This document shows positions 1-23,332 of a stretch of DNA of 32,000 bases, one piece after another (positions within the stretch are counted from its first letter, which is position 1; each line of letters begins with the position of its first letter). The DNA is from an uncultured Pelagibacteraceae bacterium (GTDB lineage: Bacteria; Pseudomonadota; Alphaproteobacteria; Pelagibacterales; Pelagibacteraceae). The stretch covers positions 5,596-37,595 of the forward strand of contig CACHWQ010000008.1 of NCBI GenBank assembly GCA_902583645.1, read 5' to 3'. The notes beneath the pieces are model-generated. The model was not told the origin of the DNA, did not search any database, and saw only the letters and a list, made by a program, of their open reading frames with translations. The translations under genes were made by a program, and so were the position numbers.

Positions 1-1181
1 CTGCAGCTGTTATTAAAGCTTTAACAATTGGTGAGTCTAGAGTTGTTCTATATAAAGTTTGTTTAATAGCTATAACTTTTTTATCATTTGCTGCTTGGTT
101 TAAAAATTCAATTACTGAGTCAAATGTTTCAAAAGGATGATGAACAACTAAATCTTTCTTTTTAATAGTTTCAAAAAAATTATCATTATATTCTTTTAAT
201 CTTTCAACTTCTCTAGGGGTAAAATGCTTAAATCTTAATTTTGGATTTTTTACTTTACATATTTGATCTATATCTTGAATTCCAACAAGGCCAGATACAT
301 CATAAATATAGTCAGGATTTATATCTAATTTATTAGTTATAAATCTTACCAATTCTTTATCGCTATTTTCAAGAACCTCTAAACGAACAATATCACCAGT
401 TCTACGTCTTTTTAAAGCCAATTCAAAAGATCTAACTAAATCTTCTGCTTCCTCTTGAATCTCTACATCGCTGTCTCTTATTACTCTAAAAATCATTTTC
501 TTTTCTAAATCATGATCTGGAAAAATTTCATTAGCAAAAAAACTTATTACGTCATCTAGAATAACAAACTTCTTATGATTTTTTGAAGACTCTATTTCAA
601 TAAATCTAGATAATGCTTTTGGTATTACAATTATTGAGTTTAAAATCCTTTTTTTTATTTTTTTTTCTTAACTTCATTACAATTGCTCTTCCTTGATTGA
701 TTATAAATGGAAATGGGTGTGCAGGATCAATTGCTGATGGTGTTAATAAAGGGTAAATCTCTTCTTTAAATATTTCTAGAAGTTTTTTTTTATCCTTAGT
801 ATTTAAATTAACTGGTTTAACTAAACTGATATTATTTTTTTTTAATTCCATAATCAGTTTAATAAAAATTTTATTCTGTTTTTTTAATAAATTCTTAGTT
901 TCAAGCACTACTTCATCCATTTGCTCTTCAGGTGTCAAACCATCAGAACTTAATGATTCAACTTCTTGTTTTATTTGACTATATAACCCAGCAACACGGA
1001 CCATAAAAAATTCATCTAGATTAGACCCAGCAATTGATAAAAACTTTACTCTTTCATAAAGAGGATTTTCGATATTTTGCGCCTCTAAAAGTACTCTGTC
1101 GTTGAATTTTAACCAAGAAAGCTCTCTATTAATATATTTAGATTTTAGCTCTTCTTTATGTTGTTTTTTTAAAGCAGTCAT
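1..1181 (-). pseudogene. ppk: Polyphosphate kinase 1 (PPK1). The N-terminal roughly two-thirds is present and the gene runs off the left edge. As read, the frame is broken once, in the A9-T-A8 coding-strand tract (plus-strand T runs 649-656 and 658-666).
   Basis: ORF 606..1181 has the PPK1 N-terminus (ELSWLKFNDRVLLEA, NLDEFFMVRVAGL, DPAHPFPF). Hand translation of the minus strand 1..657 in the neighbouring frame continues colinearly (IVIPKALSRFIEI, FRVIRDSDVEIQEEAEDL, RRRTGDIVRLEV, VVHHPFETFDSVIEFL, IKQTLYRT). Removing one A from the A8 run joins the two frames. Confidence 0.85.
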
Positions 1182-1194
1182 ATATTTAGATTTT

Positions 1195-1719
1195 ATGTAT
1201 CAATTATACGTCATGAGACACGCAAAATCTAGTTGGGATGATTTAAGTATTAATGATTTTGATAGACCACTTAGTAAAAGAGGCAAGAAAAATGCAAAAA
1301 TGATTTGTGAATTTTTTGTTAAAAAAAAATTTAAATTTGATTATGCATTAATTTCATCATCAAAAAGAACAAAAAAAACTTTTCAAATTTTATCCAAGAA
1401 AATTAATAAGCCAAAAAAAGTTAATTTTTCAAAAGATTTATATTTAGTTGATGAGAATGCAATTACAAAAAAAATTAAAGAAATATCCAGTGAATATAAA
1501 TCGATTTTGATTATAAACCATGAACCATCAGTGAAAAATTTAGTACGAAATCTTACAAAAAATCATAATACGAATAATTTTAAACTAATGAATTATAAAT
1601 TCCCAACAGCAGCATTTGCAAAAATTGAGTTTGATATTAAATCCTGGAATGAAATTGAGAAAAAAGGAGTTTTAAAAGAATTTATAAGACCCAAAGATCT
1701 TCAAGATTCTAAAGAATAA
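1195..1719 (+). CDS. Histidine phosphatase superfamily protein, SixA-like phosphohistidine phosphatase.
   Basis: RHG-type motif near the N-terminus (LYVMRHAKSSW) and a second catalytic His context (LIINHEPSV). I prefer ATG 1195 (MYQLYVMRHAKS) over the tracked start at 1102, which would overlap ppk by 80 nt. Confidence 0.7.
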   Translation: MYQLYVMRHAKSSWDDLSINDFDRPLSKRGKKNAKMICEFFVKKKFKFDYALISSSKRTKKTFQILSKKINKPKKVNFSKDLYLVDENAITKKIKEISSEYKSILIINHEPSVKNLVRNLTKNHNTNNFKLMNYKFPTAAFAKIEFDIKSWNEIEKKGVLKEFIRPKDLQDSKE

Positions 1720-2384
1720 CCAGCTGATCTCACTGTTCTAATTAAAGGTTTTGTATTTTGTATGTTAATTGCTTGTCTTAATCTTCTAATATGAACATCT
1801 ACTGTTCTAGACTCAACATATATATCTTCCCCCCAAACATTATTTAGAAGTTGTTCTCTTGAATAAACTCTTTTTGGATTTTTGATAAAAAAATCTAAGA
1901 GTTTAAATTCAGTTGGACCCAAAGTAATTTCTTTATCTTTTCTATAAACTCTTTTTGTAATCCGATCTATTTTTAAATCAGTAAATTCTACAATGTCTGA
2001 TGATGATTGAGGTTTAGATCTTCTCAATAAAGATTTTATTCTAGCATTCAATTCTTTTTGACTAAAAGGTTTAGTTACATAATCATCTGCACCTGTATCA
2101 AATGCTTTTAATTTGTCTTCTTCCTCCCCTTTTGCAGTTAACATAATGACGGGAATATCATTAAACTTATTATCTTTTTTTAAGTTTTTACAAATTTCAA
2201 CACCAGATAATTCTGGTAACATCCAATCCATTAATATTAAATCTGGCTGTTTTGATTTTATTTGTTTAAGAGCATCTTCTCCATTTTCTGAATGACTGAC
2301 TTTATAACCTTCTTTTTCAAGATTGTACTTTAACAAACTAACAATTGATGCTTCATCTTCAGCTATGAAAACATGAGCTGACAT
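1701..2384 (-). CDS. phoB: Phosphate regulon response regulator PhoB (OmpR family).
   Basis: Receiver domain (DLILMDWMLPELSG, MLTAKGEE) plus a winged-helix output domain (RTVDVHIRRLR). It lies 3 nt downstream of phoU in the pst cluster. Confidence 0.9.
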   Translation of the reverse strand: MSAHVFIAEDEASIVSLLKYNLEKEGYKVSHSENGEDALKQIKSKQPDLILMDWMLPELSGVEICKNLKKDNKFNDIPVIMLTAKGEEEDKLKAFDTGADDYVTKPFSQKELNARIKSLLRRSKPQSSSDIVEFTDLKIDRITKRVYRKDKEITLGPTEFKLLDFFIKNPKRVYSREQLLNNVWGEDIYVESRTVDVHIRRLRQAINIQNTKPLIRTVRSAGYSLES

Positions 2385-2387
2385 AAA

Positions 2388-3095
2388 TCATTTTTCTCCT
2401 GTTACAATTGGCTCGGTGCCCTTTGGTCTGTCACCTTCTAAATATTCACCTTTAACTAAGTAATAAATTTGTTCTGCAACATTTGTAGTATGATCACCAA
2501 TACGCTCAACGTTTTTGGTCACAAACAACAAGTGAGTTCCATCCTCTAAATTTTTTTCATTGTCTTTAAGATATTTTATAACATCTTGCATACAAAGATT
2601 TGTTAGATCATCTATTTGCTCATCACCTTCCCAAACATTTACTGCTATTGGCGCAGATCTTTCTAGATAAGCGTCTAATGTTGATTTTAATTGTTTTTGA
2701 ACATTGGTAGATACTCTATTTAGTGAATCTACCAAATTCTTTGGAAGATTTTCATTAAGCAAAAGTGTTCTCTTGGATATATTTTTTGCTAAATCACCTA
2801 TTCTTTCTAAATCTGAAGACATTTTCAAAGCCGTTACTGTCTCCCTTAAATCAATTGCCATAGGTTGTCTTAAAGCAATTAAATTTACAACTTGTTGTTC
2901 AATCAAGGCTTCATATTTATCTATTTTTTCATCATCTTGAATTACATTTTCAGCAATATCACTATTTCTTGTTGTAATGGCTTGAATTGCTTTACCTAAA
3001 GCATCCTCACATGCACTTCCCATCTTAACTATATTAGCATTCAGATTTTTTAGTTCTTCTTCGTAAGATTTAACTGTATGTGGTGCTTCAGACAT
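2388..3095 (-). CDS. phoU: Phosphate signalling modulator PhoU. As read, it is fused in frame to pstB within tracked ORF 2388..3851.
   Basis: The C-terminal 235 aa of the 487-aa ORF show the duplicated PhoU repeat ([12 protein letters not shown] and [12 protein letters not shown]). ATG 3095-3093 overlaps the restored pstB stop as TAATG. Confidence 0.85.
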
Positions 3096-3851
3096 TATCC
3101 AAACCTCCCTGTTATATAATCTTGCGTTTTTTTTATTATCAGGATTCTTAAATATTTTATCAGTAGATCCATGTTCAATCAATTGTCCTAAATGAAAAAA
3201 ACCTGTATTTTGAGAAACACGTGCTGCTTGAGCCATAGAATGAGTTACAATTATTATTGTGTGCTCTTTTTTTAACTCGTCAATCAATTCTTCAATTTGC
3301 GCTGTTGCTATAGGATCTAATGCTGAACAAGGCTCATCCATTAATATAACTTCTGGTCTTACAGAAATCGCTCTAGCAATACAAAGTCTTTGCTGTTGTC
3401 CTCCAGATAATCCAGTTCCAGGTTCATGTAATCTATCTTTTACTTCTTCCCATAGTGCAGCCTTTTTCAAACTAGTTTCAACAATTTCATCCATTTCTTG
3501 TTTTGATTGAGCCATACCATGAATTGTTGGACCGTAAGATACATTTTCATATAAAGTTTTTGGAAAAGGATTAGGTTTTTGAAAAACCATACCAATTTTT
3601 TCTCTTAGTCTTACTACATCACAACTTTTATCATTGATATTAAAGTCATTAATTAAAATTTCTCCTTTAACACTACAAATATCAATTACATCATTCATTC
3701 TATTAAGACATCTTAGGAAAGTTGATTTACCACAACCAGATGGACCAATTAATGCTGTTACTTGATTTTCATCAATATCTAAACTTATATTAAAGAGCGC
3801 TTGTTTTTTTCCATAAAAAACATCAACATCTTTTGCTTTAATCTTTATCAT
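3095..3851 (-). CDS. pstB: Phosphate ABC transporter ATPase PstB. The native C-terminus is recovered only after removing one A from the A8 run (plus-strand T8, 3127-3134).
   Basis: Walker [10 protein letters not shown], signature LSGGQQQRL, Walker [12 protein letters not shown]. The shifted frame after NPDNKK reads [10 protein letters not shown]-stop, the canonical PstB C-terminus, with stop at 3095-3097. Confidence 0.88.
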
Positions 3852-5122
3852 TTTAACTCCATTTTTTTTTCAAACTTATGTCTAATTATTTGGGCAAATA
3901 AATTCATTGTTATTAAAAAACCAAGTAAGACCATTATACACGCCGAGACTTTTTCTACAAATCCCCTTTCAGCACTTTCAGCCCAAATATAAATTTGAAC
4001 TGGTAAACTTGCAGCAGGATCCATAGGTGATCCAGGTATCGTGTTAACAAAAGCAACCATTCCAATTAAAATGAGGGGTGCGGTTTCTCCTAAAGCTTGA
4101 GCTAAACCAATTATTGTTCCTGATAACGTACCAGGCATAGAAAGAGGAACTGTATGATGCATTGTGGTTTGCATTCGACTTGCTCCCATAGCAAGTGCTG
4201 CCTCTCTTATACTTGGTGGAACCGCTTTTAATGATGCTCTAGCAGCTATAATTATTGTTGGTAAGGTCATTAAGGACAAAGTGATACCTCCAACTAATGG
4301 TGTAGATCTTGGTAATTGAAATATAGCCAATAAAACTCCTAACCCTAATAGACCAAAAACTATAGATGGAACTGCTGCTAAGTTATTTATATTTACTTCA
4401 ATAAAATCAGTAAATCTATTTTTAGGGGCAAATTCTTCAAGATAGATTGCAGCTAGAACCGCAACAGGAAAAGCTATCATTAAACAAACAAGTATAGAAA
4501 AAATTGAGCCCATAAATGAACTAGCTATACCAGCTAGTTCAGCTTCTCTTGAGTCTGCATTTGTAAAAAAACTAATATTAAATTTACTTTCAACCTTACC
4601 ATTTACAACAAGTTGATCAAAAATTTTTAATTGATAATCGCTTACTCTTCTTTGGTCTTCAGGTAAATCTCTTGGATAATTTCCTTTAAAGACTTGGTCT
4701 AAATCATCTGAAGCAGTTAGATAAACTTCTTTTGTTTTTCCTATTAAATTAGGGTCATTTAAAAGCTCATTTTTAATTTCTTTTTCGAAGAAATAAGACA
4801 CCATTCTCTTCAATTCATTTTCTTGATCCTCATTGGCATTTAGATCTAAATCAGCCATTGATTTTAATGCTATATCGTAATAATCGGCATCTTGTATATC
4901 TTCTTTAGAAGGGTTTTGTTCTAACATCATTAGTTCGGGATCAAAAGTTACTGGAACAATGAGCCAAGTTTTTTGAAAAGCTGAATAGCCAGTTGAAAAA
5001 ATTTTGAAAATAAAAATTGTTAAAAATAAAAGTGCCATAAAAATTGCACTTTGACCGTATAAGCGAAATCTCTGCTCAGCCTTGTATCTTTTATTTAATA
5101 ATTGTTCTTTATTTTTATTCAT
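3848..5122 (-). CDS. pstA: Phosphate ABC transporter permease PstA, long form with a large periplasmic loop.
   Basis: Permease core with the EAA-like loop ([15 protein letters not shown]). The position between pstC and pstB fits. I prefer ATG 5122 (MNKNKEQ), which gives an ATGAATAA 8-nt overlap with the pstC stop; the tracked start 5146 is possible. Confidence 0.85.
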
Positions 5123-6500
5123 ATTTCTCTCTATATTTTTTAACAACTCTTAAGGCCACAATGTTTAAACAAAGCGTTACTAAAAATAATGACATACCTA
5201 AAGCAAAAGCAGCTTGCGTTTTTGGGTCACCAAAAGCTTGGTCACCAATTAGAATAACTACAATTTGAGCTGTAATTGTTGAAGTAGATTCTAATGGATT
5301 TAAAGTTAAATTAGCAGCTAAACCAGAGGCCATAACAACTATCATTGTTTCTCCAATAGCTCTTGAAACACCAAGCAAAATAGATCCAACTATCCCCGGC
5401 AATGCTGCAGGAAAAATAACTCTCTTGATTGTTTCTGATTTAGTTGCTCCCATAGCATAACTTCCATCTCTTAAACTTTGAGGTACACTTGTAATTACAT
5501 CGTCACTTAAACTTGAAATAAATGGTATGATCATAATGCCCATTACCCCTCCTGCTGCTAAAGCACTTTCAGCTGAAACTTCGAGACCCATTGAGGTTCC
5601 TAATTCTTTTAAAAATGGGCCAACAGTTAGGGCAGCAAAAAAACCATAAACAACTGTTGGTATACCAGCTAAAATTTCAATTAATGGTTTTGCATATTGT
5701 CTAACTTTAGCTGATGCATATTCAGCTAAATAAATTCCACTCATTAATCCAATTGGTATAGCAACACACATAGCAATAAATGCAATAAAAAAAGTACCTG
5801 CAAAAATAGGAACTGCTCCAAAAGTATCTGAATACATTGTCGGATCTAAAGCCTCAGAAGAATCTCTAACAAAAGCTTTTGCTGGATACCAGTGAGTTCC
5901 AAAGACAAAATCAAATAATGGAATTACTTTAAAAAAATCTATAGTTTGAAATATAAGTGAGAAAACTATTCCAACAGTAGTTAATATTGCAGCTAAAGAA
6001 GCTGTAAATAAAACTGCGTTCAAAAATTTTTCAACTGGTTCTCTTGTTCTAGAATTAGATGAAATTCTTTTATACGCATAAGCAACAGAGGCAATAATTG
6101 CAGATAATACTATAACAACTTTTGAACTTTGTGCTATTGATCGAAGACTTAAATATTTTTCAGCAGAAGCATCAATGAAAGGTGTAATTTCTCCGGTGAA
6201 TTGACCTCGAGATAATGCTTTTGTCTTTTCGTATATTAAATTTAATTCATCATCAAGATAACCTTGATTTGAATAATCACTTAATATTAATAGTTTTACA
6301 ATTGTGGGCTCAAAAATTGCCCATAAAGAAAAAATTATAAAGGCTGGTATTGCACACCAAATTGCAAGATAATAACCATAAAATTGTGGTAATGCAGTTA
6401 ATCTTTTTTTTGTAGATTGAATTGTATATGCTTTTTTGCGTCCAAAATAATAACTTGTGAAACCTAGAAGAACAATAAATATAAATAATATTAAGTTCAA
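5115..6500 (-). CDS. pstC: Phosphate ABC transporter permease PstC (long form).
   Basis: Multi-pass membrane protein with a permease loop (LRDGSYAMGATKSETI). It lies directly downstream of pstS. Confidence 0.88.
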   Translation of the reverse strand: MNLILFIFIVLLGFTSYYFGRKKAYTIQSTKKRLTALPQFYGYYLAIWCAIPAFIIFSLWAIFEPTIVKLLILSDYSNQGYLDDELNLIYEKTKALSRGQFTGEITPFIDASAEKYLSLRSIAQSSKVVIVLSAIIASVAYAYKRISSNSRTREPVEKFLNAVLFTASLAAILTTVGIVFSLIFQTIDFFKVIPLFDFVFGTHWYPAKAFVRDSSEALDPTMYSDTFGAVPIFAGTFFIAFIAMCVAIPIGLMSGIYLAEYASAKVRQYAKPLIEILAGIPTVVYGFFAALTVGPFLKELGTSMGLEVSAESALAAGGVMGIMIIPFISSLSDDVITSVPQSLRDGSYAMGATKSETIKRVIFPAALPGIVGSILLGVSRAIGETMIVVMASGLAANLTLNPLESTSTITAQIVVILIGDQAFGDPKTQAAFALGMSLFLVTLCLNIVALRVVKKYREKYE

Positions 6501-6535
6501 AGAATCTCCTTTATTGAGGACTGTACTCTTAATTT

Positions 6536-6569
6536 AAAAAAAAGGGGTCTAAAAAAGACCCCCTTTTTT
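6536..6569 (-). terminator. Intrinsic terminator/attenuator hairpin between pstS and pstC, structurally bidirectional.
   Basis: Stem GGGGTCT (6544-6550) pairs with AGACCCC (6556-6562) around a 5-nt loop. It is flanked by A8 (6536-6543) and T6 (6564-6569). On the minus-strand transcript the hairpin is followed by U8. Confidence 0.75.
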
Positions 6570-6593
6570 AATCATTTGTTAACTGAGGAATAA

Positions 6594-7625
6594 TTAATTA
6601 CCCATAGCAACTAGTTTGGTAGCATTAGTTCTAGTTGTTTTATACAACTTAGAGTCTAATGGCACTAAACCAATGTCTGCTAGGTAACCACCTTTTCCAA
6701 TAGCTTTCTTCGTTGTGAATTCTTTCACAAACTCATGTAAACCTGGAATTACTCCAACGTGAGCTTTTTTCACGTAGAAGAATAAAGGTCTAGCAACAGC
6801 ATAACTGTAGTCTTGAATAGACTTCAATGATGGTTGTCCACCATCAATACTTGCTGCTTGCAATTTATCTTTTGCAGCTAAGAAATAACTGAAACCAAAG
6901 AAACCAAACATATCTTTATCTTGAGTTAACTTTTGGATGATTAAACTATCATTTTCTCCAACTTCAATAGCAGCACCATCTTCTCTGTAAAGTTTTTGAG
7001 GTTTTTTGTATTTTTTATTTCCAGCTTCAAAACCAGCTTTATAAAGAGCTTTAGCTTCTTTGGTCATACCTTTTTTCATAACTAAAGAATTCCAAGCATC
7101 TCTAGTTCCTGATGTTCCTGGTGGGATCATCACTGAAATTTTTTGTTTTGGTAAGCTAGGGTCAATTTGGTCCCAAGTTTTATAAATATTTGGAACTAAT
7201 TTACCGTCAACAACTGTATGAGCAGCTAGTGCTAAATACAAATGTTCTTTAGTAAAGTTTACTGGTTTTGCATCTTTGCTGTAAGCTAATGTAATACCAT
7301 CGTTACCAATTACGATCTCAACGATTTCATTTACACCATTTTTCTTACAAAGAGCTTTTTCTTTATCTTTCATAGCTCTTGATGCATTTGTAATATCAGG
7401 ATGTTGTTCACCTACACCAGCACAGAATAGTTTAGCTCCACCACCAGTACCAGTAGATTCGATTACAGGAGTTTTAAATCCTGAACCACCAAATCTTTCA
7501 GCAACAACTGTTGCGTAAGGGAATACCGTAGAAGAACCAACTATCTTAATTTGATCTCTTGCTTGAGCAACAGTTGCTATTGATAAAGCAACTAATGAAG
7601 CAATTACTATAGTTAGTTTTTTCAT
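6594..7625 (-). CDS. pstS: Periplasmic phosphate-binding protein PstS.
   Basis: Signal peptide (MKKLTIVIASLVALSIATVAQA) and PBP-type phosphate-binding motifs (KIVGSSTVFPY, GTSGTRD). It is the first gene of the pstSCAB string. Confidence 0.9.
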   Translation of the reverse strand: MKKLTIVIASLVALSIATVAQARDQIKIVGSSTVFPYATVVAERFGGSGFKTPVIESTGTGGGAKLFCAGVGEQHPDITNASRAMKDKEKALCKKNGVNEIVEIVIGNDGITLAYSKDAKPVNFTKEHLYLALAAHTVVDGKLVPNIYKTWDQIDPSLPKQKISVMIPPGTSGTRDAWNSLVMKKGMTKEAKALYKAGFEAGNKKYKKPQKLYREDGAAIEVGENDSLIIQKLTQDKDMFGFFGFSYFLAAKDKLQAASIDGGQPSLKSIQDYSYAVARPLFFYVKKAHVGVIPGLHEFVKEFTTKKAIGKGGYLADIGLVPLDSKLYKTTRTNATKLVAMGN

Positions 7626-7695
7626 TATCTTTAATCCTTTCTTTATTTTTAATTTAAAAGATTGCTGACAAGTATAAATTTATTGAATCTTTAAT

Positions 7696-7723
7696 ATTAC
7701 AGAATTGTTACACTTTTGTTAAA
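7696..7723 (-). promoter_or_regulatory. Candidate Pho box: three direct hexamer repeats at 11-bp phasing upstream of pstS.
   Basis: The minus strand reads TTTAAC-aaaag-TGTAAC-aattc-TGTAAT, 70-98 nt upstream of the pstS ATG. The geometry resembles PhoB binding sites (direct repeats, 11-bp period). A 15/17 identical copy lies upstream of plcP. Confidence 0.5.
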
Positions 7724-7734
7724 AAGGTAACTTT

Positions 7735-8343
7735 TTAGTTGTATTTTTTTGATATAATTATCTGATCAATATCACTTTCTAGGCCACCAATACATGAAAC
7801 AGGGTTTACCTGTTCATTAAGAGCTAGTTCATTGCTTGGACGTAAAGTTATTTCTAGTTTTACTAAGTTTACTAATTCTTCTCTAATTTCTTCATCATAT
7901 CTCCAGCTTGGCCATGAACTTGGGGTTGAAAATATAGAGGTTAAATAACTTGTAGCCATAGTATATCTGTAATTACTCAAATTTTCATTCCTCAATAAAA
8001 AATCTCTTACAGAATTAAAAATATTTTTACATCTAAAAGAATCTGAAAAATAATTTTCCTTCTTGAGATTTTCATTCATAGGAACAGAAACAATTAAATC
8101 AATTGAATTTTTAGAATACGAGGTAACTACGTCTGTATAAAATTCATCTTCAGTAACTTCTAAATGATCTTTTATAGAAGGATATGAGGTTTTTAAATCT
8201 GCTTCTAATCTAAAAATTCCAATATCAAAAACTGTAAGTTGCTGATTTCTTAATAATGTTGTGATATCTTTAGAAAAAACACTTGTTGTTATAGAACTTA
8301 ACAAAAAAGCAAAAATCAAAATATTTTTGAATATTTTAACCAT
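7735..8343 (-). CDS. Hypothetical secreted/periplasmic protein of unknown function.
   Basis: 202-aa ORF with an N-terminal signal peptide (MVKIFKNILIFAFLLSSITTSVFS) and two Cys residues. I recognise no family motif. It sits between phoR and pstS. Confidence 0.6.
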   Translation of the reverse strand: MVKIFKNILIFAFLLSSITTSVFSKDITTLLRNQQLTVFDIGIFRLEADLKTSYPSIKDHLEVTEDEFYTDVVTSYSKNSIDLIVSVPMNENLKKENYFSDSFRCKNIFNSVRDFLLRNENLSNYRYTMATSYLTSIFSTPSSWPSWRYDEEIREELVNLVKLEITLRPSNELALNEQVNPVSCIGGLESDIDQIIISKKYN

Positions 8344-8433
8344 ATAAAAAATTAATTAAAAGATTAACATTAATCAAGTAAAGAATTGTTAAAAAAACCT
8401 TCTAAAACTATTACAATATAATACTTTTTAAAT

Positions 8434-9580
8434 TTAAGTTTTCGCTGGTAAATAAATTTGAATTTCAGTTCCTTGGTTTTCCTCACTTAGAATCTCATAG
8501 TGTCCACGATGTTGAGTAACTATATGTTTAACAATAGCTAATCCTAAACCAGTTCCACCAACCTTATTACTTTGTTCAAGATCTACTCTAAAAAATCTTT
8601 CTGTAATTCTAGAAATATATCTTTGAGGAATGCCAACACCTTCGTCTTTAACACTGATCATAAAATTTTTTTCTAACAATTTACCATCACTAATTTCACT
8701 TGATATAAAAATAGACTTATTTTCCTTTGAATACTTAATTGCATTATCTAAAAGATTAGAAAAAACAGTTTGTAATTTTTTTTCATCTCCAATAACAATT
8801 GTTGGATTTGTGAGAGATAAATTAATATTTAATTTCTTTTTTTTTAAAACAATCTCAAAATTACTGATGATTGTTTTGAAAAGATCATTTATATTAACTA
8901 AAGAGTTTGGCCTTATGTGTTCTTCTAATTCAATTCTTGTGAGTATTAAAAGATCATTAATTAAATTTTCCATTCTATTTGATTGATCAGTCATTATTTT
9001 CATAAATTTTTTTTTTGCTTTATCGTCTTCTGCCGCTGGACCTTCAATAGTTTCTAAAGATCCTTTGATAGCCATCAAGGGTGTTCTTAATTCATGGCTT
9101 ACATTGGCGACAAAATCAGTTTTAAATTTTTTGTGCTTTTGTAATTTCAGTAAAGTCTTTTAAAAATAACACAACAGAATCTGGTTCAGTAAATAAATGA
9201 GTTGGACCAGGAATAATATAAATTTTATAAAATTGATATGATGGCAAGCCTATTTCAATATCAATATTTTTTGTTTTATTTTCAACTATAGCTTTTTCAA
9301 TATTTTCTATTAATTCTGGTTTTCGAATTACAGATGATATGTTTTTATCAATTAAACTACTACCAAATCTTTTTAATGCACTTGGATTAGCATATTTAAT
9401 TATGTTAAATTTATTTAATGCAAAAAACTGATCCTCAAGCTCATCGATAATTACTCTTTTTGTTTTTTCTTCTCTTTTGTTAATTATTGTGGCGGTATTT
9501 ATTGGTTTGTTTTTTTTTTTGATTAAGTAGATATAGAAGATAAATTATAACAACTATAAGTAGAATGACGAAATATTCCA
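8434..9580 (-). pseudogene. phoR: Phosphate regulon sensor histidine kinase PhoR. As read, it is split into three frames by two homopolymer breaks (plus-strand T6 9127-9132 and T11 9510-9520).
   Basis: The tracked ORF 8434..9078 carries only the N, G1 and G2 boxes (NLLDNAIKY, DEGVGI, GGTGLGLAIVKH). The H-box FVANVSHELRTP lies just upstream in the same frame. Hand translation gives a PAS-like segment (9122-9544; ends DSVVLFLKDFTEITKAQK) in a second frame, and the TM start MEYFVILLIVVIIYLLYLLNQKK (ATG 9580) in a third frame. Removing one A at each tract yields one ORF of about 381 aa. Confidence 0.85.
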
Positions 9581-9645
9581 TAAATTTAGATAGGTTAATT
9601 TTGCATCATTACACTTTTTAATGCAAACAAATTAAGAAAAATTAG

Positions 9646-10653
9646 CTAACGATTTGGTGAAATATTATTAAAAAATATTTTTGCTGTTTCTTCCCATGTG
9701 AATTTTTTTGCAAATTCAAGACAATCATTTCGATCAACTTTTAAAGCTTTATAAGCTGAAACTTTAAGATCATTATCTAGACAATCTATTTTGGAGCCTT
9801 CAAAAATATCTTTAGGACCTGGAACGGGATACGCAGCAACAGGCGTACCGCAATTTAAAGCCTCAGTAACTACAATTCCAAATGTATCTGTTTTACTAGG
9901 GAATACAAAAACATCAGAAGATGCAAAATATGATGCAAGTACACCATTTGTTTTTTCTCCTAAAAATATATCTCTAGGGAATTCTTCTTTTAATTTTTTT
10001 AAATCGGGTCCTTTTCCTATTATTATTTTTGTACCTTCTAAATCACATTCTAAAAAAGCTCTTATATTTTTCTCAACAGCAACTCTTCCAACATAAATCC
10101 AAATTGGTCTTTTGTGGGGTAAATTAATTTTTTGAGGTTTTTTAAAAGCTCCGTGATTTCCTCCTCTGGTCCAAGTAATCATTTTATTATTATCTATACC
10201 TATATCGATTAATTCTTTTCTCATAGATTCTGTTGTTACTAAAATTCTCTCAGCCTTATTATGAAAGTTTGCTAAGAATTTTTCAGCCCATTTTGCAGGT
10301 ATAATTGGAAAGTATAGTTTAAGATATTTATCAAACCTTGTATGAAAACTCGTAGTAAATTTTAGATTATTTTTTAAACAATATCTTCTTGCCATAATCC
10401 CAATGGGACCTTCGGTAGCGATATGAATTGCATCAGGTTTGATTTTCTTTATTAAACTACCAACTCTTGGCCATACATTTATAGATAACCTTATTTCATT
10501 ATATTTAGGCATCGGAAAGGTTAAAAATAAATTTGGAGTAATATATTCTATAGTATGACCTTGTTCTTTTAAGATATTACCTGTTTCATGCAAGGTTCTT
10601 ACGACACCATTTACTTGTGGAAAATATGCATCTGTAGCAATTAAAATTTTCAT
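9646..10653 (-). CDS. agt: GT4-family glycosyltransferase, Agt-like glycolipid synthase (glucosyl/glucuronosyl-diacylglycerol).
   Basis: GT-B fold motifs (MKILIATDAYFPQVNGV, FVFPSKTDTFGIVVTEALNCGTPV). It starts 3 nt downstream of the plcP-like gene, matching the plcP-agt pairing described for marine bacteria under P stress. Confidence 0.75.
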   Translation of the reverse strand: MKILIATDAYFPQVNGVVRTLHETGNILKEQGHTIEYITPNLFLTFPMPKYNEIRLSINVWPRVGSLIKKIKPDAIHIATEGPIGIMARRYCLKNNLKFTTSFHTRFDKYLKLYFPIIPAKWAEKFLANFHNKAERILVTTESMRKELIDIGIDNNKMITWTRGGNHGAFKKPQKINLPHKRPIWIYVGRVAVEKNIRAFLECDLEGTKIIIGKGPDLKKLKEEFPRDIFLGEKTNGVLASYFASSDVFVFPSKTDTFGIVVTEALNCGTPVAAYPVPGPKDIFEGSKIDCLDNDLKVSAYKALKVDRNDCLEFAKKFTWEETAKIFFNNISPNR

Positions 10654-10656
10654 TAA

Positions 10657-11469
10657 CTATGAAGCTTTTTTTAAGTCTTCAGTTTTAATAGGTTTAATTA
10701 TATCTTTAGTGTCTAAATATTGTTCTCTTATTTTATCCCAATATAATATTTCAAAACTACCATCATAATTTTCAGCTAATGCAGTACAAGATTCAACCCA
10801 GTCTCCACAATTTAAATAATTGACACCATTAAAATCTCTATCCTCAGCATGATGGATGTGACCACAAATTATTCCATCAAACTTTTTTCTTTTTGCATAA
10901 TCTGAAACTGTTTTTTCATATTCACCAATATATTTGACTGCGTTTTTGACTTTATACTTTAAAAATTTTGCAAGGGACCAATATTCTTTTCCTCTCAACC
11001 TTCTAAAAAAGTTAATTATTACATTAAATTGTAACAATAAATTATATGCTATTGATCCAATTTTAGATAACCATTTAGCATGTTTCATTACTCCATCCCA
11101 AGCATCACCATGGACAACAACATATTTTTTTCCATTATTTGTTTCATGAATTACTCTATTTAACATATGAATATCACCAAAATGCATTGGAATAAATTTC
11201 CTTAACATCTCGTCATGATTACCCATTATGTAGAACACTTTAGTCCCATGTCTTGCTTTTCTTAAAATTTTTTGGATTACATCATTATGTTCTTGAGGCC
11301 AAAAAAAACTTTTTTGCATTGCCCAGATATCAATAATGTCTCCTACAAGATAAAGATTTTCAGATCTTGAATTTTTAAAAAACTCTAAAATTTTATTCGC
11401 CTGACAACCTTTGGTACCTAAATGCAAATCAGAAATAAATATACTCTTATATTTTAATATATTAGGCAT
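10657..11469 (-). CDS. plcP: LpxH-family metallophosphoesterase, PlcP-like phospholipase C for phosphate-starvation lipid remodelling.
   Basis: Calcineurin-like phosphoesterase motifs (SDLHLG, GDIIDIW, GNHD, VVHGD, GHIH). It forms an operon with a GT4 gene, adjoins the Pho cluster and has a Pho-box-like motif upstream. Confidence 0.75.
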   Translation of the reverse strand: MPNILKYKSIFISDLHLGTKGCQANKILEFFKNSRSENLYLVGDIIDIWAMQKSFFWPQEHNDVIQKILRKARHGTKVFYIMGNHDEMLRKFIPMHFGDIHMLNRVIHETNNGKKYVVVHGDAWDGVMKHAKWLSKIGSIAYNLLLQFNVIINFFRRLRGKEYWSLAKFLKYKVKNAVKYIGEYEKTVSDYAKRKKFDGIICGHIHHAEDRDFNGVNYLNCGDWVESCTALAENYDGSFEILYWDKIREQYLDTKDIIKPIKTEDLKKAS

Positions 11470-11531
11470 TTAAAAATCTTTTTTTTAACACAACTGTAAC
11501 ACGAATCATGTAATTCTTATCTCATTCAAAT

Positions 11532-11548
11532 GTTACAAATTTGTTAAA
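11532..11548 (-). promoter_or_regulatory. Candidate Pho box upstream of plcP-agt.
   Basis: The minus strand reads TTTAAC-aaatt-TGTAAC, 62-79 nt upstream of the plcP ATG. It is 15/17 identical to the first two repeats of the pstS site. Confidence 0.45.
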
Positions 11549-11567
11549 AATTATTTAAGAAATAATT

Positions 11568-12452
11568 ATGTTATATTGTTTAATTTATAATCTAAACTCT
11601 TCTTCAGGAAGAAAATCACAATTCATAAATAGAGTTTTATCTAAGTTAAAAGAAAATAATTCTGTAGACTACTTTGAGACAAAAACAACAAATCAAGCTA
11701 AAGAAATTTTTAGAAATTTTAATCAAAAAAAATACGATCGACTAATAATAGCTGGTGGCGATGGATCGGTATCTTTTGCAATTAATGAACTAATTAAAAA
11801 TGATTTTAACTTTAAACACGATTTTGCCATAGGTTATATACCCGCTGGTACAGCAAATTTACTTCAAGCTGAATTATCAATGAATAAAAAAGTTGATGAT
11901 ATAGTTAATGTATTGATTTCAAACAATTATAAAACCTCTAATCTTGTAAAAATTAACGAAAGTTATTTCTTTTTAATGGCTGGTATAGGATGGGATGCAA
12001 AAATTGTTCATTCAATTAATTCAAAAATTAAAAAGATTCTTGGTAAAATTATATTCGGCATCAAGGGTTTTCAGTATTTCTTATTTATGAATAATAAAAA
12101 ATTAAATGTTACTTTTGATGGACAATTTTATCAAGCAGACTGGATATTATCCTCAAATACCAAATATTACGCTGGCCATCATAAAATAAATAAAACAAAT
12201 ATTTTTGAAGATAAATTAGTTACTTATATATTTAAGGATTTGACTAGAATCAATTTATTATATTCCATATTTTTAATAATCCTTAATGGCGACTTAAGTA
12301 AAAACAAAAATGTTATTACTACTTATTCTCAAAATATCACTATTGAAGGAAATGATTTAATACCTGTTCAAATTGACGGGGATAATTTTGGTTCATATAA
12401 AAAAATTCATTTAAATCAGTCAAATAAAAAAATGAATTTTCTTGTAAAATAA
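11568..12452 (+). CDS. Diacylglycerol-kinase catalytic-domain lipid kinase (YegS/BmrU/LCB5 family).
   Basis: DAGK_cat motifs (IIAGGDGSVSFAINEL, GYIPAGTANLL). It is transcribed divergently from plcP. Confidence 0.7.
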   Translation: MLYCLIYNLNSSSGRKSQFINRVLSKLKENNSVDYFETKTTNQAKEIFRNFNQKKYDRLIIAGGDGSVSFAINELIKNDFNFKHDFAIGYIPAGTANLLQAELSMNKKVDDIVNVLISNNYKTSNLVKINESYFFLMAGIGWDAKIVHSINSKIKKILGKIIFGIKGFQYFLFMNNKKLNVTFDGQFYQADWILSSNTKYYAGHHKINKTNIFEDKLVTYIFKDLTRINLLYSIFLIILNGDLSKNKNVITTYSQNITIEGNDLIPVQIDGDNFGSYKKIHLNQSNKKMNFLVK

Positions 12453-12478
12453 TTATTCGATTATATCTGATTTATTTA

Positions 12479-13576
12479 TTAATTTTTAGATATAATATTT
12501 AATATATCCTTACCATCTATCTTTACTGGATTATTGCCTAATCTTAACAAATTTATACCTTTTAAAACATCCTCAGAACTTTTAATTATATCTATATTAA
12601 ACTTTGTTAAATCATCCTCTAAATTTGCTTTTTTTTTTATTAAAGAAATTTTAGAATTGAAACTATTAATGTCCTGAACATCAAATAAATTAAATATTAA
12701 ATCAAATCTTTTTTTTAAATCAAAAGAAGTTACGGATTTATCTAAATTATCGAAGTTAAATTTAAAAAATTTCTCAAAAAATAAGCTAACTGCATGTCCG
12801 TGACTAATATTAAATAGAGATGTAAATGGATAAGATGCAGCATGTGGGGCAGTAGTTTTAGATATGCTAATTGCTTTACCTGCTAGATTTGAAGCAATAC
12901 TCATCTCTGTTGCATTTTTCATGTTTGGATCGTTAATAAAAGATATAAAACTGTTAACAGAAACTCTTAAAGACTTTGAAGCATATTCAACGCTTTTATC
13001 GTTAGATTTTTTTGACACTAAAGACTCTAAGGCTTGAGCTATAGCATCAAAGCCTGATGATGCTTTTATTTTGTTTGGCGCAGATATTAAAAATTCAGGA
13101 ATTAGGAAAAAATGATCTGGAATTAATAATTCACTTTCAAAAGAGTGTTTAATTCCATTAACATAAATAACTGCATTAGAAGTCACTTCCGCACCAGAGC
13201 CTGCTGTTGTAGGTACAACTGCTAATTTTGTATATTTATTTTTAAACGGATAAGTGTAATTTACAATTAACTCAGCAAGATCGGGTCTAATTTCAACTAC
13301 ATTAGCTATTTTAGCGTAATCGATTACAGCACCTCCACCAATAGCCAAAAATAAATCAGGTTTAAAATTTTTGATATCTTTAATAATTTCAATCAACTCT
13401 TCAAGAATTGGAATTTCTGATTTTTTATAAAATAACTTTATCTCCTTGTTAACAATATTTTTAAGTAGATTTTCAGCACCAGAATTAACAAAAGATTTTT
13501 TGCCACATAAAACAAAAATTTTTTTAAAACTTTTGTCGTTTATGTATTTTAAGATATCTTCACTTGAATTAATCAT
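12479..13576 (-). CDS. Iron-containing (group III) alcohol dehydrogenase, a probable phosphonoacetaldehyde reductase (PhpC/FomC-like).
   Basis: Fe-ADH motifs (GGGAVIDYAK, TTAPHAASYP, ISHGHAVS). Its ATGA overlap with the ppd stop indicates translational coupling within the phosphonate cassette. Confidence 0.7.
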   Translation of the reverse strand: MINSSEDILKYINDKSFKKIFVLCGKKSFVNSGAENLLKNIVNKEIKLFYKKSEIPILEELIEIIKDIKNFKPDLFLAIGGGAVIDYAKIANVVEIRPDLAELIVNYTYPFKNKYTKLAVVPTTAGSGAEVTSNAVIYVNGIKHSFESELLIPDHFFLIPEFLISAPNKIKASSGFDAIAQALESLVSKKSNDKSVEYASKSLRVSVNSFISFINDPNMKNATEMSIASNLAGKAISISKTTAPHAASYPFTSLFNISHGHAVSLFFEKFFKFNFDNLDKSVTSFDLKKRFDLIFNLFDVQDINSFNSKISLIKKKANLEDDLTKFNIDIIKSSEDVLKGINLLRLGNNPVKIDGKDILNIISKN

Positions 13577-14670
13577 TTTTTCATAAATTGATTCTTTATT
13601 TTAATCAAATTGTCTGGTCTAGGTAGTTTTTTAATTTTACTATTAGTTACTTTAACCTCAAAAAAAGCAGGTCCATTTATTTTAATAAAATTGTTAGTTA
13701 TTTTTAATAAATTTTGCTTATTTTTAATTGAATAAAATTTTTTAAAACCTAAACTTTTAGATAGTTTTTCAAAATCTATATTGTTAGCATTAGTGCTTTG
13801 TCCGCCTACAGAGTCATGTGAGTTGTTATTTAATAAAATATATTTAAAATTTTTATTGGCAAAATTACCAGCTGTCATAATCGAGCCTAAATGCATTAAA
13901 AATGAACCATCGCCATCTATACAAAAAGTTTTATTTTTAGAGGCTAATGAATAGCCCAAAGCAACCGATGAAGTATGACCCATGCCACCAACCATATAGA
14001 AATCTTTACTTTTGTTTAAATTAAATTTTTTTCTCAAGTACATTAATTCTCTTGAATTATATCCAGTACTAGAAATGACTTTTGATTTAGATGGAATTTC
14101 TTTAATTAAAGTTTTGAGAAAATATTCTTTGTCTAAACTATAAAAGTCTTTTTTAAAGCTTGATTTACTATTTTTGTGAAGAGTGCCCTGTTCAATTAAA
14201 CAAGCGACTATGGATTGATTTTTTTTTGCATATTTAATTTGCTTATCAAATTTTTTAATATCTTTATTTGATCTTAAAATGGTATATTTAATATTTAATA
14301 GTTTTAAAATCTCTCTAGTAATTTTACCTTTTACATTATGCTGCGGTTCATCTTTAACTCTTGGTGAACCTCTCCACCCTATAATTAATATTAAAGGAAT
14401 TGAGTATACTTTCTTATGAGCTATGGATATTAACGGATTTAAAGCATTAGAAAGTCCTGAATTTTGCATGTAGATGCATGGAATTTTTTTTGTTGAAAGA
14501 TAATGACCTATTGCAATTGAAACTGCGGAGCCTTCGCTAGTTGCAATAATATGATTTCTTTGATTTTTTAAATAAGAAGATAATTCTTTTAAAACACTAT
14601 CAGGTACACCAGTAAAAAAATTAGTGTTATTTTTTTTTAATAAGTTAATTAAAGTATTAACTTTAATCAT
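13573..14670 (-). CDS. ppd: Phosphonopyruvate decarboxylase (thiamine-diphosphate dependent).
   Basis: N-terminal FFTGVPDSVLKEL and the TPP motif GDGSFLMHLGS...LLNNNSHDS. It overlaps the PEP mutase stop by 8 nt (ATGATTAA). Confidence 0.85.
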   Translation of the reverse strand: MIKVNTLINLLKKNNTNFFTGVPDSVLKELSSYLKNQRNHIIATSEGSAVSIAIGHYLSTKKIPCIYMQNSGLSNALNPLISIAHKKVYSIPLILIIGWRGSPRVKDEPQHNVKGKITREILKLLNIKYTILRSNKDIKKFDKQIKYAKKNQSIVACLIEQGTLHKNSKSSFKKDFYSLDKEYFLKTLIKEIPSKSKVISSTGYNSRELMYLRKKFNLNKSKDFYMVGGMGHTSSVALGYSLASKNKTFCIDGDGSFLMHLGSIMTAGNFANKNFKYILLNNNSHDSVGGQSTNANNIDFEKLSKSLGFKKFYSIKNKQNLLKITNNFIKINGPAFFEVKVTNSKIKKLPRPDNLIKIKNQFMKK

Positions 14671-15394
14671 TTTTTATAAGATTAATTATTTTTTTTATTG
14701 GAATTATTTTTTTATCCGCTTCAAGTGCTCTACTATTTTTTAATATAGTTCTGGCTGTATTTTGCATGGCTGGATAAGCTGACCTTAGTAATTGATTTGC
14801 GTAAATTACTAGTTTAAATCCATTTTTAATTAAATCTTTTTCATAAACTTTAGAATAAGTGGATGGAACCGAAACTAAAGGTATAAAATTTTTACTTTTC
14901 CTAAATTCCCTTGCAAAAGAAAAAATTTCTGCAGGGGTTTTTTCTTTACTATGAATTAAAATAGCATCAGCTCCTACTTTAGAATAAATTTCAGCTCGGT
15001 GTAAGGCATCTTTAAGTCCTTTGCCAACTATAAAACTTTCAATTCTAGCTATAACCATAAAATCCTGTGACTGTCTTGTATTACATACTTTTTTAATTTT
15101 ATTTGCAAATAATTTTGGTTTATCTTGCTTAGTGCCTGTCTGATTTTTAAATAATGAATTTTTTTTAAGACCAATTTTATCTTCCATAATTATTGCAGAC
15201 ACGCCAGATCGCTCTAAAGATCTTACTAAAAAAGGTAAATGTTCTATCAAACCACCATTATCTGCATCAAAAACTATTGGTTTAGTCGTAACATCCATCA
15301 AATCATTTAAAGATGAAATACGAGCTGAAAAAGATAATGATGAATTATCAGGAAGACCTTTGGTTGCTGAGTCAGTCAAGCTTGAAGACCACAT
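14663..15394 (-). CDS. pepM: Phosphoenolpyruvate phosphomutase (PepM) catalytic portion. This is the C-terminal fragment of a frame-broken cytidylyltransferase::PepM fusion.
   Basis: Diagnostic PepM motif EDK-X5-NS (MEDKIGLKKNSL), plus DADNGG and ARIESF. The in-frame sequence just upstream of the tracked Met reads KILEFDG, continuing the upstream ORF once one A is removed from the A8 run. Confidence 0.88.
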   Translation of the reverse strand: MWSSSLTDSATKGLPDNSSLSFSARISSLNDLMDVTTKPIVFDADNGGLIEHLPFLVRSLERSGVSAIIMEDKIGLKKNSLFKNQTGTKQDKPKLFANKIKKVCNTRQSQDFMVIARIESFIVGKGLKDALHRAEIYSKVGADAILIHSKEKTPAEIFSFAREFRKSKNFIPLVSVPSTYSKVYEKDLIKNGFKLVIYANQLLRSAYPAMQNTARTILKNSRALEADKKIIPIKKIINLIKND

Positions 15395-15398
15395 TCCA

Positions 15399-15965
15399 TC
15401 AAATTCTAAGATTTTTTTTATTTTTAATTATATTTGTTTTCTCAATAATTAGACCTGTTAGTGAATTGTGTGATTCCAGAATACGCACAATATCTTTAGA
15501 GTTCATTAATCTTTTTAATCTAGAAACACGGTTTTCAGGAGATGTAATGATATTAGACATCTCTTTTTTAATTAAGGTTGATGAAATATTTTTAGTATAT
15601 TTTGGTTCTATAAGTTTTCCTGACCATTTTTTAAGTGCTTTAATTACTCTCTCTCTAGTTTTTTTTTGAACACCTTTTTTCCAATCGTCTCCATGAACTA
15701 CAAAATTTGGTTTTATTAAATTAAGGTTTTCAACATAATCAAGTGTATTTTGTGGAATTACTTTTTTTACGAATTTAATATTTTCAACGACTACTTTTCT
15801 TTTTTCAAAGTTAAGATAAGGAATGTTTTTATAACTGGCTATAGCTTTATCTGTTAAAAGTCCCACATAAACGTCACCATATAAACTCGCTGTCTTTAAT
15901 ATATTGATGTGCCCTTTATGTAAAATATCAGCAGATAAACCAACATAAACTATTTTTTTTTTCAT
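15399..15965 (-). CDS. HxGH-type cytidylyltransferase domain (TagD-like) plus the first ~40 aa of PepM. This is the N-terminal fragment of the fusion.
   Basis: Motifs LHKGHINIL (HxGH), HGDDW and [10 protein letters not shown] (RTxGISTT-like), followed by PepM N-terminal sequence ([27 protein letters not shown]). The ORF ends 7 codons after the A8 tract (plus-strand T8, 15412-15419). Confidence 0.85.
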
Positions 15966-16012
15966 AATTAATTCTCACTATATAATTTTTATACATAAAA
16001 GCGCTAATATTT

Positions 16013-16534
16013 TCATTTAATTAATTTATTAATTTTATTTAACAATTGTTTTGATAAATCTTTTATGGATTTATCAAAATTATTTACTATTATAATGTCA
16101 GGGTTTTTAGGATATTCAGGCTTAATATTTATACCAACTAAGTTTTTTTTTATTTTATTTTGATATAATTTTTTTTTCTTTTTTGATTTTATTATTGTTT
16201 TCACATTACTTTTTATGAAAATCTCTACATAATTTTTAATATTTTTTTTATTCCACATCCTAGGTTTATCCATCATAGCTACAGTCGCAAAAATCAAATT
16301 TATATTTTGGTTGGTAATAAATTTTGCTAATTTACAATATTTTTCTGAAAGTATTTCTCTTTCTTTTAGAGAGTATCCTTTAAAGTTGAATATTCTTCTT
16401 AAATCATCACCACTTATTAGTAAGGTTGGTCCATACAACTTAATTAAATTTTTATGAATTGATTTAGCTAAAGTAGTTTTTCCTGAACCAGAAAGACCTG
16501 TTAACCAAAATAAAATTCCTTTTTTTTTATCCAT
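16013..16534 (-). CDS. cysC: Adenylylsulfate (APS) kinase.
   Basis: P-loop LTGLSGSGKTTLA and an APS-kinase-like length (173 aa). Confidence 0.8.
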   Translation of the reverse strand: MDKKKGILFWLTGLSGSGKTTLAKSIHKNLIKLYGPTLLISGDDLRRIFNFKGYSLKEREILSEKYCKLAKFITNQNINLIFATVAMMDKPRMWNKKNIKNYVEIFIKSNVKTIIKSKKKKKLYQNKIKKNLVGINIKPEYPKNPDIIIVNNFDKSIKDLSKQLLNKINKLIK

Positions 16535-16741
16535 TGTTCACTAAAAAATAAATATTTAATTTATACAATACTTTTTTTAATTATTAATATTTAATTACTT
16601 GATAATATATTTTATATCTATCCTATAAATATAATTAAAATCAATGTAAAACTGAAATATCTCAAATATGTTACTTATAATTAAATAGATTTGTGAAGTT
16701 AAACATTATAAATATAAAATTCTTCTGATAAAAATATTAAT

Positions 16742-17755
16742 ATGGAAATAAAAAAAAGATTAGTTTCATTTTTACGGTCAGGCCTTAGATGGAAATTAAT
16801 AAAATTATCCAAAATAATTAAAATAAACTTATATCCTAAAAAATTTAATTTAAGTATTTATTCCCATAAAATTATTTTCAATTTCATATTTAACGAAAAA
16901 TCTAAAAAAATTAAAAAAATTATTTCACAAAATATAATTGAACAACAAAAATATTCTAAAAAAAATTTAAAATTTCTTGTTTCACCGCCTGGAAGTGGAA
17001 GTACATTTGTAAGATGTATGCTAAGTAGTTATTTTGAAATTTATTATGGTATTGGTAATGGAATACCTAAGTACAATAATATAACTAATGAATGGATGTT
17101 CAGCGGATCACCAATTCTAAGTTCAGATTTGTTTAACTCAATAATAATTGATGAGTCTTTAAATAAAAATAATACAAATAAGTATTTTTCTAAGAAAGAA
17201 TTTTACAAAAATGCTATATTTTTTACTAGGTATCCTTACAAAAATTCAAAAATTGATTTGCACAATTTTAATAATTCAAAATTTATTGTTCTTTTTAGAG
17301 AACCGTATGATTGGATGATTTCACAGTACACAAGGTATGAAAAAAAAAAATATGTTGATAAAAAAAAAGTAAATGTGATTATGATCAAAGAATCTTTAAA
17401 TTACCTTAAAGGATATTATGATTTTTGGATAAAATATTCAAAGCTAAATAAAAAAAAAGTTTTATTCATTGATTACAAAATTCTTACAACAAAAAGTAAT
17501 AAAGCTTTTTTTGAAATATGTAAGTTTATCAATTATAAGATTTCAAATAAGGAATTAATTAACAACTGTGTAAAATATAATTCAAAAAAATATAGTTTAA
17601 AATTAATTAAAGCTAAATTTGAAGGAACCAGATTTTCAAATCCAAATGAAAGAAACAAAATAAAGACTAAGATTTCTAAACATTTGAATAAAGAAATTAA
17701 TAATTTAAATTTTGAAAAAATTTATAATGATCTTTTAAAAAAAGTTGTGATTTAA
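16742..17755 (+). CDS. Putative PAPS-dependent sulfotransferase.
   Basis: 5'-PSB-like loop VSPPGSGSTFVRCML and a 3'-PB-like LFREPYDWMISQY. It is divergent from the APS kinase gene and extremely AT/Lys/Asn rich. Confidence 0.55.
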   Translation: MEIKKRLVSFLRSGLRWKLIKLSKIIKINLYPKKFNLSIYSHKIIFNFIFNEKSKKIKKIISQNIIEQQKYSKKNLKFLVSPPGSGSTFVRCMLSSYFEIYYGIGNGIPKYNNITNEWMFSGSPILSSDLFNSIIIDESLNKNNTNKYFSKKEFYKNAIFFTRYPYKNSKIDLHNFNNSKFIVLFREPYDWMISQYTRYEKKKYVDKKKVNVIMIKESLNYLKGYYDFWIKYSKLNKKKVLFIDYKILTTKSNKAFFEICKFINYKISNKELINNCVKYNSKKYSLKLIKAKFEGTRFSNPNERNKIKTKISKHLNKEINNLNFEKIYNDLLKKVVI

Positions 17756-17799
17756 AGGTTTATTAATAATTATTTTTTAAAAGTAATAATAAATTAAAA

Positions 17800-20707: not shown

Positions 20708-20708
<1 letters not shown>
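18990..20708 (-). CDS. ilvD: Dihydroxy-acid dehydratase.
   Basis: 572 aa with the IlvD/Edd signatures ([18 protein letters not shown]). Confidence 0.93.

Positions 20709-23332
<2,624 letters not shown>

Follow-up and report, generated by a model that had tools for sequence, protein, structure and literature searches.

The window analysed here, a stretch of 32,000 nt from an uncultured Pelagibacteraceae bacterium of the SAR11 group (assembly GCA_902583645.1, contig CACHWQ010000008.1), contains one surplus A in each of six coding-strand homopolymers. The tracts lie in the genes for polyphosphate kinase (ppk), the Pst phosphate transporter (pstB and pstA), the sensor histidine kinase PhoR (two sites) and a cytidylyltransferase-PepM protein. 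An earlier note on this DNA had reported five of them. All five were confirmed by three-frame translation exactly where they had been placed, each with a single extra A, and the observation as such is real; the total is six, however, since the A9 tract in pstA had been missed. Comparison with related sequences indicates that the ancestral and population state is one A shorter at every site, with all genes intact, and that the six bases are slippage-type one-base poly(A)/poly(T) expansions private to one assembly, the pstB allele being present also in the single-cell genome AG-390-C19. We infer a technical origin: a miscount of homopolymers outside the cell is the likeliest single class of explanation, with about an even chance of being correct. 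The over-calling that the earlier note had placed first among its readings was thereby retained, but its attribution to flow-based sequencing was not established. The pattern is either a non-biological feature or ordinary private gene decay; it is neither a designed or conserved feature nor a new system.

The six tracts appear as T-runs on the + strand, the coding (−) strand having A-runs there. All breaks are +1 shifts, and three-frame translation recovered the frame upon deletion of one base. Removal of one A gave a colinear ortholog at every site, in agreement with the earlier note, and the products matched the proteins of relatives. Tract lengths were compared with 7 to 22 independent sequences per site. 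The ppk gene (polyphosphate kinase 1, 5' part, 1–1181, −) is cut by the left end of the window and intact with 718 aa in relatives. Its A8 tract (649–656) was A7 in 20 of 20 other sequences, and the adjoining A9 (658–666) was unchanged; the frame shifts after residue ~176 of the polyphosphate kinase, and the open reading frame (ORF) ends at a stop at position 606. At the 3' end of pstB, 21 of 22 other sequences had A7 or an interrupted run in place of the A8 tract (3127–3134, −). Within the final codons of pstA (gene 3848–5122, tract 3862–3870, both −), the A9 tract was A8 or interrupted in 22 of 22, and the surplus base alters only the C-terminal residues, from ...EKKWS* to ...EKKMELK*. Two extra A's place phoR (8434–9581, −) in three frames. 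The first break, after the N-terminal membrane segment, is an A11 (9510–9520, −) that was A10 in 7 of 7 other sequences; the second, just upstream of the HisKA phospho-acceptor motif, is an A6 (9127–9132, −) that was A5 in 8 of 8. The cytidylyltransferase-PepM gene (14663–15965, −) is split into two ORFs of 188 and 243 aa by an A8 within the PEP-mutase domain (15412–15419, −), which was A7 in 7 of 7 other sequences. The fused architecture of this protein is usual, with thousands of homologs. A common sequence context near the six tracts was not found. Long runs without a break were present in the right half of the window, as the earlier note had remarked; its example, given there as a run of at least 10 at 17341–17350, is an intact A11 at 17340–17350 in the sulfotransferase gene. 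The genes for APS kinase, sulfotransferase and a GT1 glycosyltransferase (16013–17755 and 28612–29745) are dense in long in-frame sense-strand A-runs, all intact, including several A9; GT1 alone has seven runs of at least 8.

Relatives of the left part of the window were numerous. A look-up of the exact PstS sequence retrieved ten independent loci, and six single-cell genomes were 99.3–99.87 % identical to window positions 1–12457. Aligned with each of the six, the window showed exactly five gaps, every one an extra A in the window (656, 3134, 3870, 9132 and 9520). In these genomes ppk (718 aa), pstB (251 aa), phoU (235 aa), pstA (422 aa) and phoR (381 aa) are intact. The repaired products were compared with those of the single-cell locus L007: PhoR agreed in 381 of 381, PstA in 422 of 422, PhoU in 235 of 235, PstB in 250 of 251 and Ppk in 393 of 393 residues. 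The repaired cytidylyltransferase-PepM was identical (433 of 433 residues) to a protein, P0001, of an independent metagenome contig; this contig had 99.1 % identity over 3.55 kb with a single gap, the extra A at 15412–15419, and six more contigs of ~95 % identity had A7 at the site. A scan of metagenome contigs for either pstB allele detected twelve more contigs, with A7 in 12 of 12, and those that reached ppk and pstA had the shorter tracts at both. In the relatives, the tract was interrupted at pstB in L003 and at pstA in L018, L009, L010 and others. The truncated products, namely the 191-aa Ppk fragment, the 188-aa cytidylyltransferase fragment and the 424-aa PstA, were absent elsewhere among ~15 billion proteins. 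Look-ups of exact products likewise gave no other record for the fused PstB::PhoU, phosphonopyruvate decarboxylase (Ppd), IlvD, AapP and the +1 PstA of the window. Five of the six sites were unique to the window and the pstB site was common to one other genome. The comparison of tract lengths with the closest genomes, suggested in the earlier note as a check, had a uniform outcome: the other sequences were one A shorter, AG-390-C19 at pstB excepted.

The pstB site deserves separate treatment. The earlier note had counted it among the frame breaks, and the +1 is real, but it causes no truncation: the last ten residues of PstB are replaced by an out-of-frame tail that reads on into the start codon of phoU, and pstB and phoU form a single ORF (2388–3851, −) of 487 aa in which both the ABC ATPase and the PhoU domain are complete (Pfam). 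In relatives, pstB (251 aa, window 3095–3851) and phoU (235 aa, window 2388–3095) are separate and overlap by TAATG. The separate, interacting PstB and PhoU of the Pst/Pho signalling complex share with the fusion the complete ABC ATPase and two-repeat PhoU domains as well as the neighbourhood in one operon; here, however, the two are joined by the out-of-frame pstB tail, and the conserved PstB C-terminus (...DYITGRFG) is lost. Among species-representative genomes, a scan for the pstB A8 allele had one match, the SAR11 single-cell genome AG-390-C19 (L018, contig CACDSN010000005.1, pstB tract at L018 5122–5151). This genome is distinct from the window (96.7 % identity over 6 kb), and its tracts in ppk and pstA are normal. 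It encodes the same fused ORF of 487 aa (L018 4396–5880), and the extra A is its sole indel against all other sequences over 8 kb. In a third record, LULQ01001187 (L031 2829–4193), a deletion of 98 nt, and not a +1, fuses pstB and phoU in the same frame. The same out-of-frame linker occurs in three independent records, two by a +1 in the A7 tract and one by the deletion. Other PstB-PhoU fusions are vanishingly rare, a search of 5.8 billion clustered proteins having given three distant records that were fused or partial; the handful of unrelated fused records appears sporadic. A natural PstB-PhoU domain fusion was considered and rejected, as the +1 form is not conserved in a clade (window and AG-390-C19 only) and the linker is a frameshifted pstB tail.

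If the bases were miscounted, the miscount would have arisen when the DNA was amplified, the bases were called or the consensus was built, over ~15 kb of a draft assembly derived from a single cell or a metagenome, and ppk, pstB, phoU, pstA, phoR and cytidylyltransferase-pepM would all be functional in the organism. The private changes point in this direction. In window positions 1–12457, five one-nucleotide indels stand against four substitutions, compared to 1 against 100 for the six relatives pooled (Fisher P = 6e-6); pairs among the close relatives differed by 0–1 gaps over 17–21 kb. The four substitutions (two synonymous, one Asp/Glu, one intergenic) constitute no excess. In the intergenic DNA of the same relatives there is ~1 indel per 10 substitutions, and the ratio of the window is ~10–20 times that of this unconstrained DNA, a factor that rests on 1 indel versus ~10 substitutions. 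Because its indel-to-substitution ratio is far above that of the relatives, the private spectrum looks non-evolutionary. Alleles private to one assembly, with errors confined to homopolymers and no surplus of substitutions, are the expected signature of a technical miscount. Artefactual homopolymer indels that break genes apart have been described for AT-rich Pelagibacter assemblies (bioRxiv 10.64898/2026.04.03.716430). The similarity to those assembly-induced frameshifts extends to one-base indels in A/T-runs, genes split into adjacent ORFs, private alleles, ortholog-identical proteins after repair and the lack of a substitution excess. Differences are a local density ~10 times higher, with 6 events in 16 kb here versus ~26 per genome there, the restriction to +1 events in one half of the window, and the occurrence of one event also in an independent Illumina genome.

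Several observations weigh against a miscount. Technical errors should be independent of function and position and should go in two directions, and most platforms miscount both ways; here, six of six events were +1 and all lay in the left 15.4 kb. Although the two halves have the same density of coding A/T tracts, 6 of 6 events are at or left of position 15419. A uniform error would not predict such clustering, and selection against frameshifts in needed genes would. The asymmetry noticed in the earlier note, a right half without breaks, stands in so far as all events are on the left, but it is modest (P ~0.013, by a test picked after the data had been seen). The location of all sites in phosphorus genes, also emphasized there, is true of the sites and weighs little, because most of the left 16 kb consists of phosphorus genes. 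The double hit in phoR would be expected of a gene already dead, and the A7-to-A8 change in pstB recurs in AG-390-C19, an independent Illumina single-cell genome with a background 3.3 % diverged. In addition, the assembly, which is unannotated and present only at NCBI and has here a contig of 58.7 kb (58,724 nt), resembles the Illumina single-cell assemblies of its nearest relatives, in which indels of this kind are all but absent; errors of Illumina sequencing would be chiefly substitutions, of which the window has no excess. The relatives' assemblies were obtained by phi29-based amplification and NextSeq sequencing (PMC5519541) and are clean in this region. Two further statistics settle little. 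The occurrence of all six T-runs on the + strand was not significant against tract counts (~0.07–0.2). The maximum-likelihood slope of event frequency on tract length was a factor of 2–2.5 per nt, with an A5 and three A7 runs struck and most A9–A10 runs untouched; so shallow a slope speaks for a miscount but is not decisive, because in repair-deficient Pseudomonas aeruginosa the rates reach a plateau at tracts of at least 7 nt and insertions exceed deletions 3.3-fold (PMC4702332).

The closest competitor of the miscount is a series of real and recent mutations, to which we assign a probability somewhat short of even. The replisome would have slipped at six poly(A) runs in the lineage of the cell, and the alleles would have been kept under relaxed selection on the phosphate-starvation circuit, a circuit made up of the sensor PhoR, the Pst transporter together with PhoU, polyphosphate kinase and the synthesis of phosphonates. 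Once phoR was broken, the regulon would fall silent and additional hits would be neutral; the altered pstA tail and the PstB::PhoU fusion are mild changes that could persist regardless. On this reading, slippage at homopolymers would have begun to turn genes into pseudogenes in an organism lacking MutS and MutL. SAR11 bacteria are reported to have neither mutS nor mutL (PMC12374537), and in mismatch-repair-deficient bacteria nearly all indels are one-nucleotide changes in homopolymers (PMC4702332; PMC5854121). Six +1 events, mostly among runs of A7–A10, fit this pattern, together with the insertion bias and the plateau noted above for P. aeruginosa. They affected dispensable genes, and if they are mutations, valS, ilvD, aapJQMP and trkAH would have stayed untouched because of selection. 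One-nucleotide frame-breaking indels in A-runs and a repeat hit in phoR are what pseudogenisation would leave, the private substitutions look like real divergence, and the +1 at pstB is present also in the independent Illumina genome AG-390-C19. In AT-rich endosymbionts, moreover, gene erosion is known to set in with homopolymer frameshifts (PMC3017870).

The same data limit the case for real mutations. A ratio of five indels to four substitutions is difficult to reconcile with the intergenic spectrum of the relatives. The five alleles other than pstB were absent from all other genomes, metagenome contigs and protein records, which means that a clone with these alleles has not been sampled, and neither shared alleles in clonal relatives nor further decay was observed; the repaired proteins still match those of relatives (PstB 250/251). 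Apparently dispensable and tract-rich genes, i.e., those for the sulfotransferase, the APS kinase and the GT1 glycosyltransferase, were not hit. The pho block appears to be a recent import or the product of a sweep, being 99.87 % identical to that of other lineages, and an immediate decay sits oddly with this. SAR11 genomes are noted for having very few pseudogenes, which also argues against decay. Gene erosion initiated by slippage at poly(A)/poly(T) tracts in AT-rich endosymbionts without mismatch repair (Moran et al. 2009; Tamas et al. 2008; Williams and Wernegreen 2010, PMC3017870) is a close biological parallel, with a small AT-rich genome without MutS and MutL, single-base indels in sense-strand A-runs, a linked set of genes and two hits in one gene. 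SAR11 is, in contrast, free-living with a huge population, without the bottlenecks of a symbiont; no relative shares the alleles, further degradation is not visible, most tracts are shorter than 9 nt, and a rescue by transcriptional slippage is implausible for phoR. The decay of the phosphorus circuitry, the third reading of the earlier note, is viable and nearly as likely as the miscount. The more specific picture of a wild SAR11 cell dismantling its phosphate-starvation circuit and phosphonate synthesis purely by +1 slippage on a newly recombined pho block has a slightly lower probability.

A mixed origin is improbable, and the small probability we attach to it is an overlap of the miscount and the real mutations and does not add to them. 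The A8 of pstB, perhaps with the pstA tail, would be a real and tolerated low-frequency variant that recurs or spreads by recombination, and the breaks in ppk, in phoR (both) and in pepM would be technical. The occurrence of the pstB A8 in two assemblies with backgrounds 3.3 % apart, as the only indel in 8 kb of AG-390-C19, speaks for it, as does the fusion in the same frame by a 98-nt deletion in LULQ01001187; moreover, only product-sparing changes are expected to be visible in wild cells. Set against this, none of 12 metagenome contigs and only 1 of 10 other genome loci had the pstB A8, the fusion drops the conserved PstB C-terminus, and two origins for six look-alike events in one window are not parsimonious.

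Functional slippery tracts, which the earlier note had offered as its second reading, are very improbable. The runs would serve as phase-variable switches of Pho, polyphosphate and phosphonate functions, or the genes would be expressed by transcriptional slippage as in Buchnera and Blochmannia. The sense-strand location in an AT-rich streamlined genome, an A11 in phoR long enough for appreciable slippage of RNA polymerase, and the endosymbiont precedent (PMC3017870) are compatible with such a function. Phase variation and slippage-rescued expression are nevertheless not supported, because the +1 alleles are private to the assembly and the runs show no conservation. Length did not vary at five sites, and pstB differed in 1 of 22 other sequences; on/off polymorphism was not seen, the relatives all having the in-frame length save the one genome at pstB, and in some of them the runs are interrupted. 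Four of the six tracts are A6–A8 (lengths 6, 8, 8, 8, 9 and 11) and only two reach 9, compared with tracts of at least 9 A's in the endosymbiont cases of slippage rescue (PMC3017870). For phoR, two independent corrections would be needed, one of them at an A6. Phase-variable contingency loci resemble the window in having a coding homopolymer whose length toggles the frame; they differ in that the tracts here are not polymorphic among close relatives, neither conserved nor proximal to the 5' end, and located in housekeeping and regulatory genes and not in surface-exposed or contingency-type genes. Two other explanations were discarded: a chimeric contig is unlikely, as the junction at 12457–12473 is clean, without shared repeat or adaptor, and a sequence derived from transcripts, considered since slippage of RNA polymerase yields +1 A's on the sense strand, is excluded by coverage of both strands and of intergenic DNA and by unchanged sense A9–A11 runs of + strand genes.

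The window has a G+C content of ~28 % and carries the majority of its genes on the − strand. The gene map was based on Pfam scans and near-identical Pelagibacter (SAR11) sequences. Besides the genes described above, the left part encodes a histidine phosphatase (1200–1719, +), phoB (1701–2384, −), pstC (5115–6500, −) and pstS (6594–7625, −). Between pstS and phoR lies an ORF of 202 aa without Pfam match (7735–8343, −), which has equal position and length in every relative compared. A GT4 glycosyltransferase (9646–10653, −), a metallophosphoesterase (10657–11469, −) and a diacylglycerol-kinase-like (DAGK-like) gene (11568–12452, +) follow phoR. Further genes are those for a Fe-alcohol dehydrogenase (12479–13576, −), Ppd (13573–14670, −), APS kinase (16013–16534, −) and sulfotransferase (16742–17755, +). 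From 17800 onward, manC, ilvD, valS, an HTH gene, aapPMQJ, GT1, trkH and trkA are all on the − strand. The manC gene (mannose-1-phosphate guanylyltransferase/isomerase, 17800–18990, −) has an in-frame deletion of five residues, with 396 aa versus 401 in all relatives compared.

The two parts of the window have different affiliations. The ppk-phoB-pst-phoR-DAGK block was 99.83–99.87 % identical to single-cell genomes whose manC-ilvD-valS region was only ~82 % identical (window 17812–22960). Among those single-cell genomes (L001–L008), the block was ~99.9 % identical versus ~97 % in the flank, and for L002 the values were 95 % in the pho block and 85 % in the flank. From these identities, the phosphate-acquisition block looks like a case of recent recombinational spread or of a gene-specific sweep across diverged SAR11 backbones. 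Between the DAGK-like gene and manC lies an island of 5.3 kb (12458–17811) that the closest relatives of the pho block lack; it comprises the genes for Fe-alcohol dehydrogenase, phosphonopyruvate decarboxylase, cytidylyltransferase-PepM, APS kinase and sulfotransferase. The same cassette directly adjoins phoR in other SAR11 contigs (L012 and L013), and the island junction in the window is clean. The best full-length matches of the right half were 93.7 % aa identity for ValS and 89 % for GT1, and the closest match was a contig of 781 nt with 99 % aa identity over 223 GT1 residues. The backbone lineage (17812–32000) is sparse in public data compared to the heavily sampled pho block; no near-identical relative of the right half was found, and the lineage therefore appears to be rare.

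If the extra bases are technical, ppk, pstB, phoU, phoR and pepM of this assembly are to be treated as intact, and surveys of phosphonate producers or of Pho-regulon content that draw on such assemblies would mis-score the cell. The PstB::PhoU fusion of the three records may be tolerated or functional, or may represent three artefacts. Should the mutations be real, the translational fusion would arise repeatedly and survive in nature, and in a streamlined, free-living bacterium without MutS and MutL the loss of genes would begin with homopolymer slippage sooner than with substitutions. The window would then be a rare snapshot of gene loss under way in SAR11, a group noted for almost no pseudogenes, and would bear on the turnover of phosphorus-acquisition genes between ocean populations and on the mutational cost that a poly(A)-rich genome incurs when mismatch repair is lacking.

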